Shown: positions 7,583-20,000 of the stretch, piece after piece | How positions within the stretch are numbered: the stretch's first letter is position 1 | Layout of the letters: each line of letters starts with the position of its first letter | DNA from: an uncultured virus (IMG/VR IMGVR_UViG_3300045421_000122) | Taxonomy: Duplodnaviria; Heunggongvirae; Uroviricota; Caudoviricetes | Length of the DNA stretch: 20,000 nt | Direction: 5' to 3' (one strand) | IMG/VR virus record: IMGVR_UViG_3300045421_000122 | Notes under the pieces: generated by a model | What the model was told of the DNA's origin: nothing | Databases searched by the model: none | What the model saw: the letters and a program-made list of their open reading frames with translations, nothing else | Position numbers and translations under genes: made by a program

Positions 7583-10500
7583 TTATACTGGTGTGCCTAC
7601 CTTTACAGTCCATGTTGTGTCGTTGTATATTTTAATTTTATCTGCATCTATAGTCAAACCCTCTTCATCATCAAAGATTATTTTATTAGTTCCTATATAA
7701 GTTTCATAAATATCAACTGGATTTGCTCCATATCTATCTGATGATCCTATTACTAATACCCCTTCCCAAGTAGAAGAGTTAAGCCAATATTGCCAATTAT
7801 AATTTTCTCCGCCAAAAGATATAACCTGTTGCCATGGTCTGGTTAATCTGCTTTGAATCTGTTGTAGGTTATTTGCTTGATAGAAAGAAATGTTATTAAA
7901 AACAAATTGTCCATTGAGATTAATAGAACCTAAAAATAAATCGTAAAGTAATGAGTTAGAAAATCCAATTCCAAGAACTCCCCATTCATTTCTTGTAACA
8001 ACTGGCTCTCTTACAAGTTTTCCATTCCAATAGTAAGAAAGTCCGTCGTAAGACCCTCCAGAATTAAGACTTTTTGCATATATTCTAGCGCGATTACCAG
8101 TCTCACTATCTGCTACAAAATAAAATTTAATTGTGTCAGATTTATATTTAATATCAAAAAGTTCTACTGGTGTTTCAGGGAACTGCCTTTCATCATATTT
8201 CATCCACATCTGTACGGCGCTAACACGATAATTATCTGCTTTATTTATGTTAATTGGAACTGACAGCCCTCTGTTTATTAAAGGATCATAATCTCCACGA
8301 ACTTTTATTCCAGAACTTTTATTTAAATAAAGATAGGGGGTACTTCCTTTGTAAATGCTAAATGGATTTTTAGACTTGTAGTCATAATAAATTCCCGCTT
8401 TTTTGTATGGAAAAATATCTACTCCAAATCTAGTTCCTACTGGATTAAAAGAGTTGTCATTAAAAGCCTGAGATGCAAGTTCTAGTCTTTTTAATTTTAA
8501 TGGTTTCTTTAAAATACCACGAACATTAAAATCTAAATGAGTTACAACTGCAATATCATTAAAGTCAATGTTTTTAGCAGGATATATCAATGTATTATCT
8601 ACAACCTCAAACTTTGTTGTTTCCCAACTGTTAAAATCTGACATGTCAACAATAGAACCCTCTCTTGCCGTTCTAATCGTAGTAAAGTTAGACCTTGGGG
8701 CATTGGCTCCAAGATCAATATATTGAAATGTGATATAACTTCTAATTGATGCATCTTCTGTGTCGTACTCATAATATTTTTCTGTTTGCCCTGACATTTG
8801 CAAATAATTATCCCAGCCAGTAAATAAGTAATTATCTAATTGATCATAAGATCTTTGTATTGGATATTCATATGCATCTTTTAATTCTTGGTAGGTCCAG
8901 GTACTTGTTGATGCCTGATCAACCAATTCAGATGGAGGTGGATAAGCAATATTGAACTGTAAAAAGTCAAGTCCGTAATATAAATTTCCTGCTGAATCAT
9001 TAATAAATTGTGCAAAATATGATAGAGGCAAATAATCTTCCCAATATCCAGCAACTCCAATATCTAAGAAATATGTGTTGTATGCCTCTGTTGGTAATAA
9101 TGTGTAACTTGCTGTAAAGGCAATCAAGGACTCACCAGAGGTACTAACTGCAAATCCGTTACTAAAATAATCTTCATTTTCTTGTGCATTATAATCAGTT
9201 GATAATCCAAATGAATACAGTTTACCCTCAAATGTATTGGCAGCGGTTGTATCCCCTGATACATATAGTTCAAGACCATTTCTATTTCCAAAGAAAGAAG
9301 CGACATTGCCTCCAAACCTTTCAACCAGATCTGGAATATTAATACCTACCGCAAATATGTCATCTACCGATATTGAATTGAAGGTATATAAAGAGGTGCT
9401 TGCCCCATTGTAATACAAACTGTAGACAAGAGAGTCATCTTCTTGTATAACCTCAAAATAATTATTATTGGTTTTATTGTATATTTTAAATAATGTTTGT
9501 TCTATGGAGTTAACATTGTCATGACTGAATACTCCATATACCGCTTTTATTTCTTCATTTAAAATTTCAAAATTTGTAAAGTTATAGTAAGCATGAACAG
9601 AGTCCCAACTGGTACTTGGTCTAAAAGTTATGAACTTGTTGCTCTCATCTTGTATTTCTTGATTGGCATCATATAAATCTTGTAATGTTTCATCTTCTAT
9701 AAATATTGTTGGCAATTGATATTCTGGTGTTCCAATATAAGTTGAGGCCGTAAGCAAATTATCAAAACTGCCTTGATTCCAGGCAGCAAAATCTGGATAG
9801 GTATAGTTGGCGGTATAATCAGCAAAACCATAATCAATAAATGCTGTGGTGCCACCATAGCCAGAGTCAATGCTTTCTGAAGAAACAACGGCTTGTCCAT
9901 AAACCCATCTACGTTTTGCTACTGGAACTGGAACCTGATAGGGATATATAGCAACGCAATCTATTTCTATTGGAGATACATCTGTATATGAATAAAATCC
10001 AAGCCAATCTTGTTCATTATCATCATCTAAAATTGCTGGTAAATCCAAAGTGTCTGTGTTTATACTAAAATTTATTACTTCTTCACCATTAACTAAAACA
10101 GATGCATTGTTTCTAATTAAGCGCAAGTGAATAAGCATTGGTCTAAACCATTCGCCTACGAAATGAGATCCAAAATTATTTCCTATAACAAAAGTTAAAA
10201 ATCCACCCTCTACATATAATCCATCTGAGGATGATATTGGTCCAAATATTCTCTTAGGAGTGATTGCATTTGAATTTATTCTAGTCCAAAACTCTACAGT
10301 ATATTCTTTATATTGTCCAGCCTCATTTAAAAATCCTTTACCTGGAATTATTAAAGAAGGTTCTCCTTCTTCGTTTGGAGATAAAATAGTAGAATTGCTT
10401 GCACCATATACCATTGGAACGCTAGAGTTTCTTGCAACCAAAGCATTATCATTAATTAAATAATATCCTGATTCTCCACCTAAACCATAAGCCTCTGCTT

Positions 10501-11164
10501 CAACTCCACTGGTTGTAGCAATGGCTATGGTATGAGAGGTAATTGCTGCTCCTGCTACTCCAAGTGAATAATTGTTATGCTCTTCTGACCACTGTCCTAC
10601 GCTAATTCCATTAATATAAAATGCAGTTGTTGATGTTGCTGCTCCTCCGTTAAAGGTTGCTTTTATAACTGCTCTCATTGTTGTATTTTCATTTGGAATT
10701 TCAAATGTTCCAGATACAAACCCCCAACTAGCATTTAAACTTGTATCAAAAGTATTTAGTTCTTGTACATCTAATGCTGTTGTAGTATCTGTATATTCAT
10801 ATCCTATTGATACTGAATCTAAAACAGCAGAAGAATCAAAAAAATATGAACCAACTGCAAATGTTGCAAGGGTTGAATTTAAACTAGAAAAATTTACTAA
10901 GTCATCACTTATGCAAGTAATTGTAAAACTGGTATTTGCTGGAATTACTAAATTTAATTTATTAACTACGCTATCTGTAAAAGGCTCTACAGAAGGAGCA
11001 CTTGTTGAAGCAATAGATGTTACATTAGTTCTGATCCAACTAGTAAAAGCCCTTTGTGCTTCTGTTATTAATGTTAAATAATCAGCGGTATCGTCTAATG
11101 CCCACAGCGTTGTAGGGTGCTCTGCAAATATTTTTTCTGCATATAAATTAGACGGGTTAGACAT
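7583..11164 (-). CDS. Large virion-associated protein with concanavalin A/LamG-like beta-sandwich segments, 1193 aa
   Basis: SD AGGAG before ATG; N-terminal 'IFAEHPTTLWALDD' and 'YTVEFW...GEWFRPMLIHL...ASVLVNGEEV...IDCVAIY' are LamG-like patterns; acidic and aromatic-rich. Exact role (tail tip or baseplate) not determinable. Confidence 0.65.
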   Translation of the reverse strand: MSNPSNLYAEKIFAEHPTTLWALDDTADYLTLITEAQRAFTSWIRTNVTSIASTSAPSVEPFTDSVVNKLNLVIPANTSFTITCISDDLVNFSSLNSTLATFAVGSYFFDSSAVLDSVSIGYEYTDTTTALDVQELNTFDTSLNASWGFVSGTFEIPNENTTMRAVIKATFNGGAATSTTAFYINGISVGQWSEEHNNYSLGVAGAAITSHTIAIATTSGVEAEAYGLGGESGYYLINDNALVARNSSVPMVYGASNSTILSPNEEGEPSLIIPGKGFLNEAGQYKEYTVEFWTRINSNAITPKRIFGPISSSDGLYVEGGFLTFVIGNNFGSHFVGEWFRPMLIHLRLIRNNASVLVNGEEVINFSINTDTLDLPAILDDDNEQDWLGFYSYTDVSPIEIDCVAIYPYQVPVPVAKRRWVYGQAVVSSESIDSGYGGTTAFIDYGFADYTANYTYPDFAAWNQGSFDNLLTASTYIGTPEYQLPTIFIEDETLQDLYDANQEIQDESNKFITFRPSTSWDSVHAYYNFTNFEILNEEIKAVYGVFSHDNVNSIEQTLFKIYNKTNNNYFEVIQEDDSLVYSLYYNGASTSLYTFNSISVDDIFAVGINIPDLVERFGGNVASFFGNRNGLELYVSGDTTAANTFEGKLYSFGLSTDYNAQENEDYFSNGFAVSTSGESLIAFTASYTLLPTEAYNTYFLDIGVAGYWEDYLPLSYFAQFINDSAGNLYYGLDFLQFNIAYPPPSELVDQASTSTWTYQELKDAYEYPIQRSYDQLDNYLFTGWDNYLQMSGQTEKYYEYDTEDASIRSYITFQYIDLGANAPRSNFTTIRTAREGSIVDMSDFNSWETTKFEVVDNTLIYPAKNIDFNDIAVVTHLDFNVRGILKKPLKLKRLELASQAFNDNSFNPVGTRFGVDIFPYKKAGIYYDYKSKNPFSIYKGSTPYLYLNKSSGIKVRGDYDPLINRGLSVPININKADNYRVSAVQMWMKYDERQFPETPVELFDIKYKSDTIKFYFVADSETGNRARIYAKSLNSGGSYDGLSYYWNGKLVREPVVTRNEWGVLGIGFSNSLLYDLFLGSINLNGQFVFNNISFYQANNLQQIQSRLTRPWQQVISFGGENYNWQYWLNSSTWEGVLVIGSSDRYGANPVDIYETYIGTNKIIFDDEEGLTIDADKIKIYNDTTWTVKVGTPV

Positions 11165-11199: not shown

Positions 11200-13230
11200 C
11201 TAATATAATTTAATCTCACATGCGTCTGTTGAGCAATATTTCTCAGACTCTGCATCAAGATTATCTTTGCCATCATAAATAGCAGACCAATCAATTTTAC
11301 GAATTGTTCCAATATAAGAGTTATACTCTTCCTTTGTTATTTGAGTATATGGTTGTTGTGGGTATGTTTGATTGCCCATTGGCAAAAATGATACTGCCTT
11401 TAATTGCCCTTCGTACATATGAAGCGCTGGAGCAATATGCTTAGATTCTAACTCTTTATCAAATGAAAGAGTTACAGATACGCCATTGTCAGACCAATAC
11501 TTTTGAGCGGTAGCAGCCAAACCAATTTTTTCAAAAAGACTTACATCTTTCTCTGATCTTGAATGTCCTGATGCAACTGGGAAGTAAACTACTGAAGTGT
11601 TTGCTGATACAACATCTGGTTCAATTTTATACCCTGCTGCTTTAAATAAATGAATCATTGGATCTGTATTTCCAAACCTTATAGCACGAAGATAAAATTC
11701 TCCACCAGGACCCCAGTGAACACCAGGGGTAGCACCAGAAAGTAGTGACACAGATCCAGAAGGTTTAACAGTAGTTACACGAATTGATTCTCTTACACAC
11801 AACCACTCTGAATAAGAGTGATCGTATGATCGAATTTTTTTATACCCTTCGTCCATCCACTCACGAATTACTGGCATACCTTTTGTATCTGCAAATGATG
11901 CAATACCAGTTAAAGATGTTCCAATACGACGATTGCGTTGCATAATTCCATTTGTATTTTGCCAATGTGTTGGCATAAGAGTAACAGTCTTACCATACAA
12001 ATATGCAAACTTTAATGTACGAAGAAAATCTTCTTTATCTTCATGACGATTTAAATGAACTTCTACAAGTGTGCATAGTTCATAAGATTCTAATGGTTGT
12101 TCTGCACATGGATTAAATCCCATAACACGAGAATCTTTATAATCTGGAGCATCTGCAAGTCTTCCGTAATCTCTAGCAACATCTAACCAAATAAATCCTG
12201 GTTCGCCATTATTTGAAATTAAATTAACATATTCCTCATACTTTGTTCCAACCTCTGCAGCGATAGAGTTATTTGACATCCACGCCCATCCTGGTTTTTC
12301 TGAATCAAATGAATTTCTATCTGGAAAAATCTCTGCATTTTTTAAATTAATAAAATTTTGATCTCCTGGTAGCCCCAAAGCCAAGGTGGCAGAACGACGA
12401 ACATTTCCAGAAACAACACATGTGCCAATAAGATTAACAATATCTACAATTGCTCTAGAATCAAGTTTTTCTCCTGCTCTGCTGCCAATTACTGCCTCTA
12501 TCTTCTTATGTAAGGCAACAAGTGGTGCTGGACCGCTAGCAACCCCTCCAAAGCCTTTTATGGGGGCACCTAAAGGACGGATAAGGTCATAGTTAAACTT
12601 TTGTATAGCCTGATTGGGGCGCAGGTATGAGTTTAAAAGCATTCTTAAAGAGTCTACCCAGCCTTCACGAGTATCTGGAATATCCCATATATTTTTTGGC
12701 TCTATTGGAGCATAGATAAGCATTTCTTTGTCTTGGCCAATTGTGTCAAACCCTACACCAATACCTAACATTAAAGCATCCATAACCCAAGCAAATAAGG
12801 CTCCTGGATCATTCCGATCAATCTCGCGAGTAGAAACCATTGCACAGTTTTGCAGAGATGCAGAGTTTCTTTTTTCCATAGTCATAGGAGTTCCAAACGC
12901 CCACAAGCCACGACCTGGGGGAGTCCATTTTAAATTAAACATTCTGTCATAGGCTTCTTGAGCAGACTTCTGGGCTTTATTGTCATTCCAGGGTAGTCTA
13001 TTGTCTTTAGCATGATTTTTTTGTACTGAATACATTCCTTCAATTACCCGCTTACAAACCTCGTGCCATCTTTCTTTTGTGCCGTCTTGTTTTATACGAG
13101 AATATGTACGAATAAAAGTAATTTCACCCAATGAATTAGAGCCTGCATCTGTAAAACCAAATGGAGGCTCTATTGTTTTATATTTATTAACAAATTCATC
13201 TAATAAATGAAAAGAAAATACGTCTGTCAT
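11200..13230 (-). CDS. nrdJ: Class II adenosylcobalamin-dependent ribonucleotide reductase, monomeric RTPR type (start revised to ATG 13230)
   Basis: 'TFIRTYSR', 'PPGRGLW', 'LQNC', 'VVSGNVRRSA', 'GFNPCAEQPLESYELCTL' (thiyl-radical Cys), 'TTVKPSGSVS' and C-terminal 'CSTDAC' redox pair; no ATP cone; SD GAAAGGGA before ATG 13230. Confidence 0.93.
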   Translation of the reverse strand: MTDVFSFHLLDEFVNKYKTIEPPFGFTDAGSNSLGEITFIRTYSRIKQDGTKERWHEVCKRVIEGMYSVQKNHAKDNRLPWNDNKAQKSAQEAYDRMFNLKWTPPGRGLWAFGTPMTMEKRNSASLQNCAMVSTREIDRNDPGALFAWVMDALMLGIGVGFDTIGQDKEMLIYAPIEPKNIWDIPDTREGWVDSLRMLLNSYLRPNQAIQKFNYDLIRPLGAPIKGFGGVASGPAPLVALHKKIEAVIGSRAGEKLDSRAIVDIVNLIGTCVVSGNVRRSATLALGLPGDQNFINLKNAEIFPDRNSFDSEKPGWAWMSNNSIAAEVGTKYEEYVNLISNNGEPGFIWLDVARDYGRLADAPDYKDSRVMGFNPCAEQPLESYELCTLVEVHLNRHEDKEDFLRTLKFAYLYGKTVTLMPTHWQNTNGIMQRNRRIGTSLTGIASFADTKGMPVIREWMDEGYKKIRSYDHSYSEWLCVRESIRVTTVKPSGSVSLLSGATPGVHWGPGGEFYLRAIRFGNTDPMIHLFKAAGYKIEPDVVSANTSVVYFPVASGHSRSEKDVSLFEKIGLAATAQKYWSDNGVSVTLSFDKELESKHIAPALHMYEGQLKAVSFLPMGNQTYPQQPYTQITKEEYNSYIGTIRKIDWSAIYDGKDNLDAESEKYCSTDACEIKLY

Positions 13231-13259
13231 TGTAATCCCTTTCCACAAAAAATAAGATT

Positions 13260-16488: not shown

Positions 16489-16701
16489 TAAAATGATAAA
16501 GGTGCTACCAATAACTGCTACGCCAATGCCTTGCGACGGAGGTATTGAAACGCCTATGTTTTCAAACCTTACTCTAAATGGATAAATGCCTTTGATATCT
16601 GCTGTATAAGATCCTATGTTAGATATTTTAGATTTAGAATAATTAACGGTATTTACAAATACCCTTCGACTTTGAATGTCTTTAACCTTAGCAACTGGCA
16701 T
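16486..16701 (-). CDS. Hypothetical protein, 71 aa, hydrophobic C-terminus (GIGVAVIGSTFIIL)
   Basis: Fills the gap; starts 2 nt after the upstream stop. Confidence 0.65.
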   Translation of the reverse strand: MPVAKVKDIQSRRVFVNTVNYSKSKISNIGSYTADIKGIYPFRVRFENIGVSIPPSQGIGVAVIGSTFIIL

Positions 16702-16703
16702 AA

Positions 16704-17099
16704 TTAACTTTCGTAAGGACCAGTTACATCTTCAATTACTGTGATTGTTCCTTTTGCTACCGTCCAAGTTCTGGTAGCGTCTGATAATTGAATATCAAAA
16801 ATATCATTTGTTTCTAAACTATCTGATTGCTCAGCGGTTAAGGCTACTGTGAATTCTCCGTCATCATCATCTGCGGTTACACCTGGAGTTAGAGAAACTA
16901 TAACCGTATCGCTTGTTGATCCTTGTCTAACAACATCCATTGCAATATCCCAATCAGAAATAGTTAATGGATTACGATCTTCATCTGTTACATAAACTCT
17001 AAATGCTGCTGTATCTCCACGAACAACTGTCCAAGAAATATTTGGTGGGGAAACGCCAATTGAAAATGATTCAGATCCTGCTCCTCTATAATTTGTCAT
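16704..17099 (-). CDS. Ig/BppU-N-like beta-sandwich virion adaptor, 131 aa (start revised to ATG 17099)
   Basis: TAATG coupling at 17097-17101; 'VVRGDT..FRV...GEFTVALTAEQS..L....FDIQL...TVAKGTITV..DVT' is a common baseplate/fibre-attachment fold pattern. Confidence 0.7.
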   Translation of the reverse strand: MTNYRGAGSESFSIGVSPPNISWTVVRGDTAAFRVYVTDEDRNPLTISDWDIAMDVVRQGSTSDTVIVSLTPGVTADDDDGEFTVALTAEQSDSLETNDIFDIQLSDATRTWTVAKGTITVIEDVTGPYES

Positions 17100-17623
17100 T
17101 ATGATAATCCTGCTTTCATTGATCCCCAAGTTCCATTGCCTTTGCTTGCACCTACAATAATTGTACCTGATACTGCTGATTTTGCTACCACGCCAATCAC
17201 ACCACCACCTGTTGTTGGTTGTGTTGCTGTAAGTCCGCCACCTTCTGCAACGTACAGCCTATCTCCAGCGGTATATGAAGAAGTATTAACTCCATTAAAT
17301 ACTCCTGTTAATACAACAACACCGTCAGATGTATTTGTAATAGTTGCTTCCGCTAAACCAACTACAGGAAATGTTGATAATGTGCTTGCATTTGATTTTG
17401 CAACTCTTGGTTTTGTTGCGCCATGTCCAATAATATAAACAGGATCACCTTTTGTTATTGTTACACCGCTTGTATTTGAAACTTCTAATGTAAGATACGG
17501 AAGTCCAAGGTCAGGTAAAACAGCATCAATTGCTTCTGCTAAATTTTGAATATCTTCATGTACGTTAACACTATCAGATGATAGCGGATAAGGCAAATCG
17601 TAATTTGTGGTCTCTGACGGCAT
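17099..17623 (-). CDS. Minor tail/decoration protein, 174 aa
   Basis: N-terminal 'TTNYDLPYP..SD..NVHEDIQNLAEAID' resembles actinophage minor-tail anchors; C-terminal 'ITKGDPVY...VGLA...GVVVLTG...AGDRLYV...G.LT.T.P' resembles capsid-cement-like beta domains. Confidence 0.7.
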   Translation of the reverse strand: MPSETTNYDLPYPLSSDSVNVHEDIQNLAEAIDAVLPDLGLPYLTLEVSNTSGVTITKGDPVYIIGHGATKPRVAKSNASTLSTFPVVGLAEATITNTSDGVVVLTGVFNGVNTSSYTAGDRLYVAEGGGLTATQPTTGGGVIGVVAKSAVSGTIIVGASKGNGTWGSMKAGLS

Positions 17624-17629
17624 GTGTTT

Positions 17630-17638
17630 ATTATATCA
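17630..17638 (-). promoter_or_regulatory. Extended -10 promoter motif TGATATAAT, leaderless configuration
   Basis: Exact motif 6 nt before ATG 17623; no SD. Confidence 0.78.
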
Positions 17639-17656
17639 CTTTCACTTAAAATAAAT

Positions 17657-17675
17657 ATTAACATTGTGTGTTAAT
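17657..17675. promoter_or_regulatory. Inverted repeat ATTAACA-N5-TGTTAAT between divergent promoters
   Basis: Perfect 7-bp arms, but in an AT-rich context so chance is possible. Confidence 0.4.
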
Positions 17676-17698
17676 GTATATAATATATCATATTTAAT

Positions 17699-17728
17699 TT
17701 GACAAATTATTCTAAAATGTGTTATACT
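17699..17728 (+). promoter_or_regulatory. Near-consensus primary-sigma promoter TTGACA-18 bp-TATACT with extended TG
   Basis: TTGACA 17699-17704, TG 17720-17721, TATACT 17723-17728; predicted +1 near A17735. Confidence 0.85.
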
Positions 17729-17776
17729 GGTGCTATGGCACCATTAAGGTGTCATTTCGTTTCTAAGGAGGTAAAC

Positions 17777-18331
17777 TTGATACGAAGTAAAAAACTATCT
17801 GGGGGCTGGGCAACACTGTTTACATTGAGCATGATTTTGGGTGTTCAATCTGGCGCTGTTGCCAAGAATAATTTATTAGAAAAACAGGGGCTAAATGCTA
17901 CAACCGCCGACAAAGCGGTTTTTTTGGTTTCTAAGACTAATAAAGATAAAATACTAGAAAAGTATGAAAATGCAACATCTCTAACTGATTCTGAACTAAT
18001 AGAATTATTAAAGGCTGTTGGTTTCAAGGGCAAGAGTCTTAAGATTGCTTATGCTGTAGCCAAGACAGAAAGTAATGGTAGACCTTTTGCATACAATGGA
18101 AACAAGAAAACCTTAGATCAAAGTTACGGCATATTTCAAATTAATATGATGTCCTTGCTTGGAGAAAAGCGTCGTGACAAATTTGAATTAGATCACAATG
18201 TAGACTTATTTAATCCAGTCATAAATGCTAAAATTGCATATTTTATGACAAATGGCGGGGAAGATTGGACATCATGGTCTTCCTACAAAACTGGTGCTAT
18301 TAATAAATGGCTAGGTAAGTTTTCTGCATAG
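17777..18331 (+). CDS. Lysozyme-like/SLT lytic transglycosylase with N-terminal signal peptide, 184 aa (TTG start)
   Basis: SD AAGGAGGT 17765-17772; basic n-region, hydrophobic h-region and AVA cleavage-like site; 'AVAKTESNG' (catalytic Glu), 'YGIFQIN', 'LFNPVINAKIA' and 'W.SW' motifs. Confidence 0.85.
   Translation: MIRSKKLSGGWATLFTLSMILGVQSGAVAKNNLLEKQGLNATTADKAVFLVSKTNKDKILEKYENATSLTDSELIELLKAVGFKGKSLKIAYAVAKTESNGRPFAYNGNKKTLDQSYGIFQINMMSLLGEKRRDKFELDHNVDLFNPVINAKIAYFMTNGGEDWTSWSSYKTGAINKWLGKFSA
17902..17925 (+). terminator. Intrinsic terminator-like hairpin inside the transglycosylase CDS
   Basis: AACCGC-CGACAAA-GCGGTT with a run of 7 T (17919-17925), in sense orientation. Confidence 0.6.
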
Positions 18332-18339
18332 TTTGTAAT

Positions 18340-18378
18340 ATAAAAATACCCCCTTGCTTTTGGCTTGGGGGTTTTTAT
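18340..18378. terminator. Bidirectional intrinsic terminator between convergent genes
   Basis: ATAAAAAT-ACCCCC-N13-GGGGGT-TTTTAT between the stops at 18331 (+) and 18388 (-). Confidence 0.8.
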
Positions 18379-18387
18379 TTGAGTTTA

Positions 18388-18720
18388 TTATTCTATTTCA
18401 ACCCAAGACAAAGTATCTTCGTCCCAAGACCATCTGTTATCAGTTGGCATAGGTGTTGGTGCTTCCCATAAATATGTTTGAGCATTTTTTGTCCAAGATG
18501 GAAATGGTTGCGGAGCATAAAATCCAACGCCATCAAAGTGATAACCAATTCCTGCGTAGTTTTTATGAATTGGATACTTGCCACCTGAGTGAACGCCACC
18601 ATAAGTGTTGTAAGAAGTCTGTACCCACTCACCACCTAGATTTTGCTCACACCAATCAACGCCATCAGCAACAATGACTTGAGTGACAATACCATCTTCT
18701 ACTTTAGCATAATGACCCAT
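18388..18720 (-). CDS. Small Trp/Pro-rich phage protein of the type found beside glycine-rich fibre genes, 110 aa
   Basis: SD AGGAGGT; 'MGHYAKV..GIVTQVIVA...WVQTSYN...KNYAGIGY...FYAPQPFPSW...WEAPTPMP...W.WDE..LSW' pattern; possible fibre chaperone or tip protein (inference). Confidence 0.75.
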   Translation of the reverse strand: MGHYAKVEDGIVTQVIVADGVDWCEQNLGGEWVQTSYNTYGGVHSGGKYPIHKNYAGIGYHFDGVGFYAPQPFPSWTKNAQTYLWEAPTPMPTDNRWSWDEDTLSWVEIE

Positions 18721-18900
18721 TTAGTTTACCTCCTGTCCATATAGTGTTTGTGTATCTACTAATTCTACTTCTCTTTTTGTCACGATACCGCCCTGTTCAT
18801 CTAGTTTCTTTTTGGCTTCCTCTTTTGTATCAGCAATAATATGAACTGTCATATTAACTGAGTATGAGTAGATAGATGTTTTTTTAGTTTCTTTTTTCAT
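18721..18900 (-). CDS. Small hypothetical protein, 59 aa, not in the ORF track
   Basis: Manual translation MKKETKKTSIYSYSVNMTVHIIADTKEEAKKKLDEQGGIVTKREVELVDTQTLYGQEVN*; purine-rich AGAGAG upstream; fills the gap and abuts the next ATG. Confidence 0.8.
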   Translation of the reverse strand: MKKETKKTSIYSYSVNMTVHIIADTKEEAKKKLDEQGGIVTKREVELVDTQTLYGQEVN

Positions 18901-18909
18901 ATTCTCTCT

Positions 18910-20000
18910 TTAGACTGCATACCGAATAATGACTACGCCTGAACCGCCATTACCGCCTTTGTTGATTACACCCGAAGAGCCACCACCGCCTCCACCACCC
19001 GTATTGGCTAGACCGTTTTCCGCTACGGTAGAAGAAGTCTGTCCAGCACCACCGCCACCTAAACCTCCTGAACCTCCAAAAGCAGTGTTAGTAGCACCAC
19101 CGCCACCTGCGTAATAATAAGTTCCACCTACATCATGACCACTACCAGTTTGAGCAGCCCAAGATGAATATGAAGATGAACCAACACCGCCCGCACCATT
19201 AGTATTTGGCAAAGAAGCGTTGCCACCTACTGCACCAGCACCACCACCTCCACCACCAGGATAGTTGGGAGCAGACTGGTTGCCAGTTCCACCATTGTTG
19301 CCTTGTCCAGTTGTGCCAGTTCCAGCCACTCCACCACCGCCACCACCTGAGCCGCCACCACCTGAGCCACCATTTCCAGCAGTATAACTATTTCCAGCCC
19401 CTGCGCCATATCCACCACCGACAGCCGTTAAAGTGCTAAACCCAGAACCACTAATTGTAGAATTGCCACCACTTGTTGCTGGACTATAAGAAACGGAACC
19501 ATTACCACCATTTCCTACTGTAACAGTATAGGTTGTCGCGCTGCCAAAACTTTGTGAACTAGCATACAAAAGACCGCCAGCACCACCACCACCGCCTGAA
19601 TCTTGACCGCCACCGCCTCCTCCTGCGACCAATAATGTTTCTGCATTAGAAATTGCTTGATTAGGAGTAAATGTTCCCGATTGCAAAAACGCGTGATAGA
19701 AATAAGCACCATCAGTTGTTATATTGCCACCTGTTGCTTTAGCACCAGATAAAGTAGTGCTTGTAGTAAAGGTTCCCGAAGAATTAAAAGTATGTATTGT
19801 ATATCCTCCTGATGATGTAATTAAACCGCCCATTGCTTGTTGAGCACCTAAGTAGCGAGCAATTACAACTCCCGACCCACCTTTGCCGCCAGCCCGACTG
19901 GCTCCATCTCCCCCTCCGCCACCGCCACCTAAATTAAGTGTTCCATTTGTTGCCGCATTGTTTGTACCAGCACCATCACCTCCTCCACCTGTGCCTCCTG
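18910..20000 (-). CDS. Glycine-rich repeat virion/fibre protein, 5'-truncated by the window edge
   Basis: The frame of ORF 18910..19833 stays open to the window end and encodes the end of a previous domain copy (GGKGGSGVVIARY) matching the C-terminal GGNGGSGVVIIRY; 'LLVAGGGGGG...GGGGAGG' domain start. Confidence 0.88.
   Translation of the reverse strand, partial: GGTGGGGDGAGTNNAATNGTLNLGGGGGGGDGASRAGGKGGSGVVIARYLGAQQAMGGLITSSGGYTIHTFNSSGTFTTSTTLSGAKATGGNITTDGAYFYHAFLQSGTFTPNQAISNAETLLVAGGGGGGQDSGGGGGAGGLLYASSQSFGSATTYTVTVGNGGNGSVSYSPATSGGNSTISGSGFSTLTAVGGGYGAGAGNSYTAGNGGSGGGGSGGGGGGVAGTGTTGQGNNGGTGNQSAPNYPGGGGGGAGAVGGNASLPNTNGAGGVGSSSYSSWAAQTGSGHDVGGTYYYAGGGGATNTAFGGSGGLGGGGAGQTSSTVAENGLANTGGGGGGGSSGVINKGGNGGSGVVIIRYAV

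Follow-up and report, generated by a model that had tools for sequence, protein, structure and literature searches.

The only gene on the + strand of the window, by which we mean the whole 20,000-nt stretch of DNA analysed here, is a 184-aa ORF with a TTG start (CDS 17777-18331). Its product matches both PF18896 (SLT_3; 59.8 bits against a cut-off of 27) and PF01464 (SLT; 30.7 bits against a cut-off of 21.3), while its N-terminus, inspected by eye, consists of basic residues, a hydrophobic stretch rich in Gly, Ala, and Ser, and then AVA|K. We read amino acids 1-29 by eye as a predicted signal peptide or signal-anchor, so that the gene product is a predicted signal-peptide SLT lytic transglycosylase. 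Upstream lies a promoter with 11/12 matches in a consensus scan (TTGACA-18-TATACT with an upstream TG, i.e., an extended -10 of the form TGtTATACT), and homologous loci display a matching -35 / TGnTATA(C/A)T layout. Downstream, the cassette ends in a terminator hairpin, and two further hairpins lie at the start of the predicted transcript and inside the reading frame. The features of the locus are as follows:

17699-17728, + strand: sigma-70-type promoter with the -35 box TTGACA at 17699-17704, an 18-nt spacer, TG at 17720-17721, and TATACT at 17723-17728.
17735-17755, + strand: 5' hairpin ATGGCACC-ATTAA-GGTGTCAT with 8 pairs, including one G.U, and a loop of 5.
17756-17776, + strand: U-rich leader TTCGTTTCT, the full Shine-Dalgarno (SD) sequence TAAGGAGG at 17764-17771, and a 5-nt spacer.
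17777-18331, + strand: CDS of the transglycosylase, with the SLT_3/SLT lytic transglycosylase domain at aa 79-168 preceded by a linker.
17902-17920, + strand: intragenic GC-rich hairpin AACCGC-CGACAAA-GCGGTT over codons T43-A-D-K-A-V48.
17919-17932, + strand: U-tract (T7, 17919-17925) plus GGTTTCT over codons V48-F-L-V-S52.
18342-18376, no strand assigned: 3' terminator of the cassette, composed of an A-tract, a CCCCC/GGGGG stem, and a T-tract, which folds well on both strands.

All other ORFs of at least 90 aa that match a phage protein family (portal, protease, major head, tail fibre, and ribonucleotide reductase) are encoded on the - strand, which makes the gene a lone inverted cassette. 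As best explanation, the locus is an inverted cassette with expression signals of its own, from which uncultured freshwater phages make a secreted SLT-type lytic transglycosylase; two complete relatives have genomes of 109 and 118 kb. The 3' terminator folds with -16.7 kcal/mol on the + strand and -14.7 kcal/mol on the - strand; among the 12 representatives that were folded, 11 have an equivalent strong terminator after the gene (the exception, L010, has no clear one), and the true 3' terminators of cassettes in these phages reach -15 to -26.5 kcal/mol. With its fold on both strands, the terminator at 18342-18376 would also stop - strand transcripts of the structural genes that arrive from the right, and strong terminators of this A-tract/T-tract type are found downstream of the gene in other lineages, too.

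Some features of the surrounding DNA deserve mention in their own right. The divergent - strand gene at 17099-17623 has a weak Phage_cement_2 match, and a perfect extended -10 element, TGATATAAT (17621-17638, - strand), ends 6 nt before its ATG, a spacing that corresponds to the layout of a leaderless mRNA. Many homologous loci likewise show, upstream of the cassette, a TATAAT-like box that adjoins the start codon. Among the head and tail genes lies one for a ribonucleotide reductase (11200-13248, - strand; phrog_367, E 6e-144), and the adjoining 1193-aa ORF (7583-11164, - strand) has no PHROG match at E<=1e-5. At the right edge, a glycine-rich repeat protein (18910-19998, - strand; Pfam Gly_rich_2, phrog_2295) runs past the end of the window, and the local G+C content of this region is 0.50 compared with ~0.36 elsewhere.

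The 5' hairpin begins 6 nt past the -10 box, i.e., at or adjoining the inferred transcript start, and is followed at 17755-17767 by the motif TTTCGTTTCTAAG, which runs into the SD sequence ahead of the TTG start at 17777. The internal unit occupies codons 43-53, with its hairpin 126-144 nt into the CDS, the U-tract directly behind it, and the closely similar motif TTTGGTTTCTAAG at 17923-17935, all of it after the signal peptide and ahead of the catalytic domain. The initial annotation had described a signal-peptide cell-wall enzyme behind a near-consensus promoter and, inside its gene, a second unit with the anatomy of an intrinsic terminator between signal peptide and catalytic domain; these descriptions hold, and both hairpins, the T7 run, the repeated motif, and the offset between its copies lie exactly where that annotation had placed them.

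Considered on its own, the window makes a modest case for either structure. A consensus scan of 16500-19000 returned terminator-like sites at exactly the 5' and the internal hairpin, a count of two that is not above chance (shuffled sequences yield a mean of 1.5 with an sd of 1.2). The region of the 5' hairpin folds with -11.7 kcal/mol (z -2.3; centroid -10.2 kcal/mol), while that of the internal hairpin reaches -9.2 kcal/mol (z -1.2), which is matched by 30 of 200 shuffled versions, and the internal hairpin alone contributes -6.7 kcal/mol. A search of 17500-18500 against Rfam gave 17 matches at E<=10, all of them far below the gathering scores, and assigned no family. Since folding in the window is modest for both hairpins, the case that they are more than chance rests on their homologues.

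Homologues were gathered in four scans that gave 241 usable loci, or 242 sequences together with the window. These were a search in which the window protein was the query against IMG/VR (182 relatives, of which 80 were kept), a second one with a more distant relative as query (281 relatives, 80 kept), a scan of one-genome-per-species contigs (2 matches, one of them spurious), and a scan of metagenome contigs with a 7-sequence alignment (at least 567 relatives among the 600 stretches listed, 80 kept). Of the 242 sequences, 234 allowed a full CDS to be called, the 8 left out being truncated or lacking a start, and among the resulting 167 unique CDS the 165 with a length of at least 165 aa were aligned. 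A DNA search among cultured phages found only an unrelated 123-nt match, and a protein search found relatives only at 38-42%, in Streptomyces and Prochlorococcus phages. The sole clear homologue in the one-genome-per-species collection, L081, belongs to an outgroup lineage with neither hairpin. Its contig is part of a metagenome-assembled genome that carries the label Candidatus Saccharibacteria, which is a weak hint at the host because the contig may itself be viral.

We called a site terminator-like if it had a stem of at least 5 pairs, at least 3 of them G-C, and at least 5 T within 8 nt, starting 0-2 nt after the stem. Such a site is found at the position homologous to 17902-17932 in 136 of the 165 unique CDS. 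The 29 others comprise 26 members of three outgroup lineages without the element, L192 and L197, whose 10-nt loop exceeds the loop limit of the scan, and L150, which has lost the U-tract. Outside this position, the same CDSs contain 33 terminator-like sites in 88 kb, or about 1% per 28-nt window. The 139 unique CDS that carry the element form a single clade in a midpoint-rooted tree (local support 0.54), with pairwise protein identity down to 46%, and 136 of these 139 have a U-rich tract 3' of the stem. Their stems comprise 5-8 bp with 3-6 G-C pairs and enclose loops of 4-7 nt, several of them of the GNRA type. Within the window and two complete phage genomes (109 and 118 kb), the intragenic element is unique to this gene, and the covariance model R1, which was built from internal units, has no other strong match in the two complete genomes.

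In this clade, the stem is kept by changing both of its sides together. The 114 unique segments contain 22 distinct complementary arm pairs, including CCGC/GCGG, GCCACC/GGTGGC, GCCGAC/GTCGGC, AGCCCC/GGGGCT, CCTC/GAGG, and GGCCAC/GTGGCC. Among the 27 sequences of equal geometry, all 162 of 162 cells are paired and 4 of the 6 pairs display double-sided (compensatory) changes, in 22 cells; pairing drops to 23-55% in controls in which the partner was slid by 1-3 columns, and none of 500 shuffles reached the observed covariation score. The peptides encoded over stem and loop are as different as ADKAV, AHKAA, ATQQVA, APQGA, ADPKSA, and ASKEV. The initial annotation had named homologues that keep the peptide and lose base pairing or U-tract as the outcome that would speak against an RNA element, and the homologues behave the other way round: They alter the stem and loop peptide and retain both pairing and U-tract. 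As the peptide changes freely while the pairing stays, the protein follows the RNA here. We also asked which strand is the structured one by comparing G.U with A.C pairs in the internal stem, and the result was uninformative (32 vs 55 stems).

Synonymous sites tell the same story in codon terms. Counted on the tree by the Fitch method, codons 45-51 of 64 sequences have undergone 5 inferred synonymous changes compared with 56 expected, and codons 47-52 of all 139 sequences 17 changes compared with a window mean of 107, each time rank 1 of 164 windows. Both data sets place the synonymous minimum of the gene over the 3' arm and the U-tract, and the synonymous sites of VFLVS are nearly frozen. Conserved residues of the catalytic domain use 2-6 codons each, and Leu, Val, and Phe codons are free to vary at other conserved columns but not at the U-tract. 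The conservation continues into GGTTTCT, i.e., beyond what a terminator strictly needs, while the linker peptide around the element is poorly conserved except for KNNL. Judged by these comparisons of homologous sequences, selection demonstrably acts on the RNA shape of the intragenic hairpin and not on the peptide.

One lineage of this clade (L150, L146, and L162) keeps the hairpin in the form GGCCAC-GGAA-GTGGCC together with the motif GTTTCTAAGG, with AAAAGT or TAAAATT in place of the U-tract, at a site ~130-165 nt into the CDS. Lineages with the element also share a genomic arrangement in that the gene almost always runs opposite to the genes on either side: In the largest group, this holds for the upstream neighbour in 91 of 91 loci and for the downstream one in 100 of 100, whereas the gene is often co-oriented with its neighbours in the outgroup lineages without hairpins.

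Like the internal hairpin, the 5' hairpin is present in the element-bearing clade and absent from the outgroups, with many covarying stems. In the homologues, it begins 3-10 nt (mostly 6) past the -10 hexamer, and it is from this -10 spacing that we infer the transcript start. RNAalifold predicts 5 pairs for 30 diverse leaders, 4 of which show double-sided changes in 4-13 sequences, and from 16 whole 5' regions it returns a consensus of the two hairpins only. The leader tails are U-rich in all element-bearing lineages and otherwise variable in sequence, and the first 12 codons of the gene are synonymously quiet (17 changes vs 97 expected). Covariation among homologues indicates that the 5' hairpin, too, is under selection, and 5' stem-loop, U-rich leader, and full SD sequence would together make an mRNA-stabilising leader for high translation.

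For the intragenic unit, we give an even chance to its being a dual-coded intrinsic terminator or pause that functions as an attenuator, with the 5'-terminal stem-loop as the leader of the same transcript. RNA polymerase would pause and partly terminate once the signal-peptide part of the gene has been transcribed, which would leave an RNA of ~190 nt and attenuate the synthesis of a potentially lethal wall hydrolase; for comparison, the 6S RNA of phage lambda measures 194 nt. Full-length mRNA would be made whenever the hairpin is prevented from forming. The likeliest gate would be a first ribosome that follows close behind the polymerase, as the strong SD sequence may favour, or else a processive antitermination factor, because no conserved antiterminator fold was detected: The best pairing with the 5' arm of the terminator averages 4.35 nt in homologues and 4.35 nt for shuffled arms, with 0.8% of 118 at p<=0.05. 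This result also makes regulation by an RNA switch unlikely. The Q antiterminator PF06530 was not found in the 4 records searched, 2 of which are the complete relatives. Ribosomes are described as preventing terminator hairpins from forming in translated RNA (PMC5021804; PMC3894217), and the hairpin here, in frame at codons 43-52, lies downstream of a strong ribosome-binding site (RBS), as in a translation-coupled attenuator. In its simplest form, the model is that of an attenuator or pause site acting on polymerases without a closely following ribosome.

Several observations count against an attenuator. The window hairpin is weak (-6.7 kcal/mol) when compared with the true 3' terminators of these cassettes, the L150 lineage keeps a hairpin without the U-tract, and the conservation of GGTTTCT exceeds the need of a terminator. 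It would also be odd for a consensus promoter and a perfect SD sequence to be followed by a constitutive brake. Moreover, translation through the site would be expected to suppress termination.

Some of these observations lend weight to a structured RNA with a job other than termination, e.g., as a ribonuclease barrier or entry site on which the stability of the 5' or 3' portion of the mRNA depends, or as the site of an RNA-binding protein, in which the U-rich tail would serve as a single-stranded platform. Such an element would suit the lineage that combines hairpin and GTTTCTAAGG without a U-tract, the conservation reaching into GGTTTCT, and the weakness of the window hairpin, and some lineages allow an outer helix in which GGTTTCT pairs with upstream purines. 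However, this outer helix, which had been suggested by folds of single sequences and which we rejected as a candidate, is absent from the RNAalifold consensus, and its upstream partner varies at synonymous sites without sign of constraint. A U-tract that abuts the stem in 136 of 139 sequences and a G-C-rich stem base are features specific to terminators, and no known candidate for a binding factor is at hand, all of which makes a function apart from termination unlikely in our view.

Somewhat less probable again is a hairpin-dependent pause without release, which would stall the polymerase for as long as the first ribosome needs to load, or the signal peptide to engage the export machinery, and which would thereby synchronise transcription, translation, and secretion. 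A pause site would have the identical anatomy, so that anatomy alone does not tell pausing from termination; the strong RBS would fit, and the site lies ~47 codons into the gene, about where the signal peptide would leave the ribosome. No sign of an arrest peptide was seen, however, given that the linker is poorly conserved outside KNNL.

Programmed recoding at the U-run appears highly improbable, be it transcriptional slippage of the type known from the Roseiflexus IS630 element or -1 ribosomal frameshifting on U UUU UUG, either of which would yield a truncated secreted peptide because of a TAA in the -1 frame inside TCTAAG. The slippage signal of the Roseiflexus element is reported as a GCGGGC-gcaa-GCCCGC hairpin followed by U5C5 (PMC5009743), and the window resembles this anatomy in having a G-C hairpin directly 5' of the U7 run; one extra U would lead to a stop after 2 codons and one U fewer to a stop after ~10. 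Yet unlike what slippage or frameshifting would demand, neither the run nor the slippery heptamer is conserved, with TTTCTGG, TCTTTTG, TTTTGTG, TTCTTTGG, or TTTAGTTG found in many lineages. Neither shifted frame encodes a conserved extension or product, and the RNAalifold consensus of the 16 5' regions contains no conserved downstream stimulator.

The resemblance between the two tails is what had led the initial annotation to propose a common factor or antisense RNA that would read hairpin plus GUUUCUAAG at both the RBS and the terminator. In the window, TTTGGTTTCTAAG and TTTCGTTTCTAAG are indeed identical at 12 of 13 positions at an offset of exactly 168 nt (56 codons), and the exact 9-mer GTTTCTAAG occurs only twice on both strands of the 20 kb, once in each unit; with one mismatch allowed, there are 8 matches compared with 6.6 expected. 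Motifs of the GTTTCTAAG type are almost confined to leader and internal sites in 702 kb of loci. R1 scores the internal unit of the window with 49 bits and the leader as its second-best match in 40 kb (12.3 bits, E 0.083), and 14 of 53 distinct combinations of leader and internal unit share a string of 6-10 nt that is rarer than 1% of windows of the same gene, including GTTTCTAAGG in four separate groups (L209, L067, L150, and L162). Against shared recognition, 27 of the 53 combinations have only 4 nt in common (median null p 0.35), and L164, L165, and L168, the nearest relatives of the window among those with other leader tails, lack the leader motif and keep the internal one. When run on 50 loci, R1 detects the internal unit in 49 of them and the leader in 4, at scores no better than the similarly marginal ones that it gives to three ordinary 3' terminators as read on the opposite strand. 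As for the leader's UAAGGAGG, it is simply the SD sequence, and the last G of the internal motif, where any SD mimicry would show, varies freely (AAA 23 vs AAG 27). The tails are alike because both are U-rich runs after a hairpin, and the 12/13 repeat is largely a coincidence of two such tails rather than a shared recognition site, which leaves a common reading factor marginally less probable than even recoding; this part of the initial annotation is not supported.

Two further roles for the internal site were considered and rejected. An internal SD mimic or second RBS does not agree with the free choice of the Lys codon after TCT, for which we count 12 inferred changes, and no start codon follows. 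Initiation at the internal TTG to produce an enzyme without signal peptide had been suggested by the invariance of this codon in the first 52 sequences, but other lineages have CTG, CTA, or GTT in its place, and only one lineage has the SD-like GAGG.

That the site has no RNA function at all can practically be dismissed: Protein constraint on VFLVSK plus the codon bias of an AT-rich phage would account for a conserved FLVSK peptide and for TCT, the preferred Ser codon elsewhere in the gene, but not for a stem that covaries through non-synonymous changes or for Leu, Val, and Phe codons frozen only here.

Returning to the attenuator, a bolder version that we consider possible though doubtful would have it gate the timing with which these ~110 kb freshwater phages release a secreted muralytic enzyme. 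Host polymerase would always fire from the promoter, and most transcripts would end as a stable ~190-nt RNA, capped by the 5' stem-loop and ending in the terminator hairpin, that could possibly function as an sRNA; full-length mRNA would be seen only if a ribosome or phage factor overrode the stop, and the linker of the protein would have been shaped by the RNA signal. If the element is an attenuator, it would represent a previously undescribed way in which a phage holds back, or sets the timing of, a wall-degrading enzyme whose export does not involve a holin. The locus also offers a clear natural case of dual coding in which, throughout a gene family, a stretch of protein visibly yields to an RNA signal, and it points to a class of regulatory elements that is missed by gene-centred annotation and by searches for intergenic RNA motifs. 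With a length of ~35 nt, the element is compact, and synthetic constructs could employ it as a transcriptional valve that responds to translation.

Among known systems, the leaders of ompA, papA, and aprE resemble the 5' part of the cassette in placing a hairpin at the very 5' end and a strong RBS behind it, with the reservation that the transcript start is here deduced from the -10 spacing. Such 5'-terminal stem-loops reportedly stabilise mRNAs (Emory et al. in 1992 and Hambraeus et al. in 2002, both cited in PMC3997798), and the leader of phage T7 gene 10 is a comparable 5' stem-loop leader. Premature 3' ends inside ORFs, and sRNAs that arise from such ends, are said to have been described in bacteria by Adams et al. 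in 2021. In one survey, premature 3' termini make up 25% of 66,282 mapped termini from 32 species, and those inside ORFs form a recognised class that resembles our case in having termination within a coding sequence (PMC13714241). Unlike the premature 3' ends of that survey, which it presents as mostly species-specific, the site studied here is kept family-wide down to 46% identity with compensatory changes. RnaG, an antisense RNA that induces attenuation of icsA, is described as similarly causing premature termination early in an mRNA (PMC2879508), which the antisense RNA of the initial annotation would also have to do, whereas our scan of the window revealed no antisense promoter and the homologues no conserved alternative fold.

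Further parallels come from attenuation and antitermination. In pyrBI with its pyrL leader in E. coli and in the pil1 leader of Streptococcus gallolyticus, an intrinsic terminator is likewise reported in RNA read by ribosomes and can be suppressed by a ribosome close by (PMC5021804; PMC3894217). There, however, the regulated genes are preceded by a short ORF dedicated to a leader peptide, while here the terminator doubles as the enzyme's own codons, and no sensing step comparable to UTP level or repeat length is apparent. The PR'-tR' region of lambdoid phages (6S RNA and the StxS sRNA) is similarly described as having a strong promoter that is always active, a short terminated RNA, and, beyond it, lysis genes for which read-through needs antitermination (PMC7547250). 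In contrast, tR' precedes the genes, whereas our site lies inside one and the cassette serves this single gene. The open-access literature that we consulted on intragenic terminators, attenuation, and endolysins holds general work on premature termination and nothing on this gene family. The terminator or attenuator as a kind is already known, and what appears to be new here is a proposed intrinsic terminator or attenuator that is dual-coded in the reading frame of an enzyme and conserved across its family.
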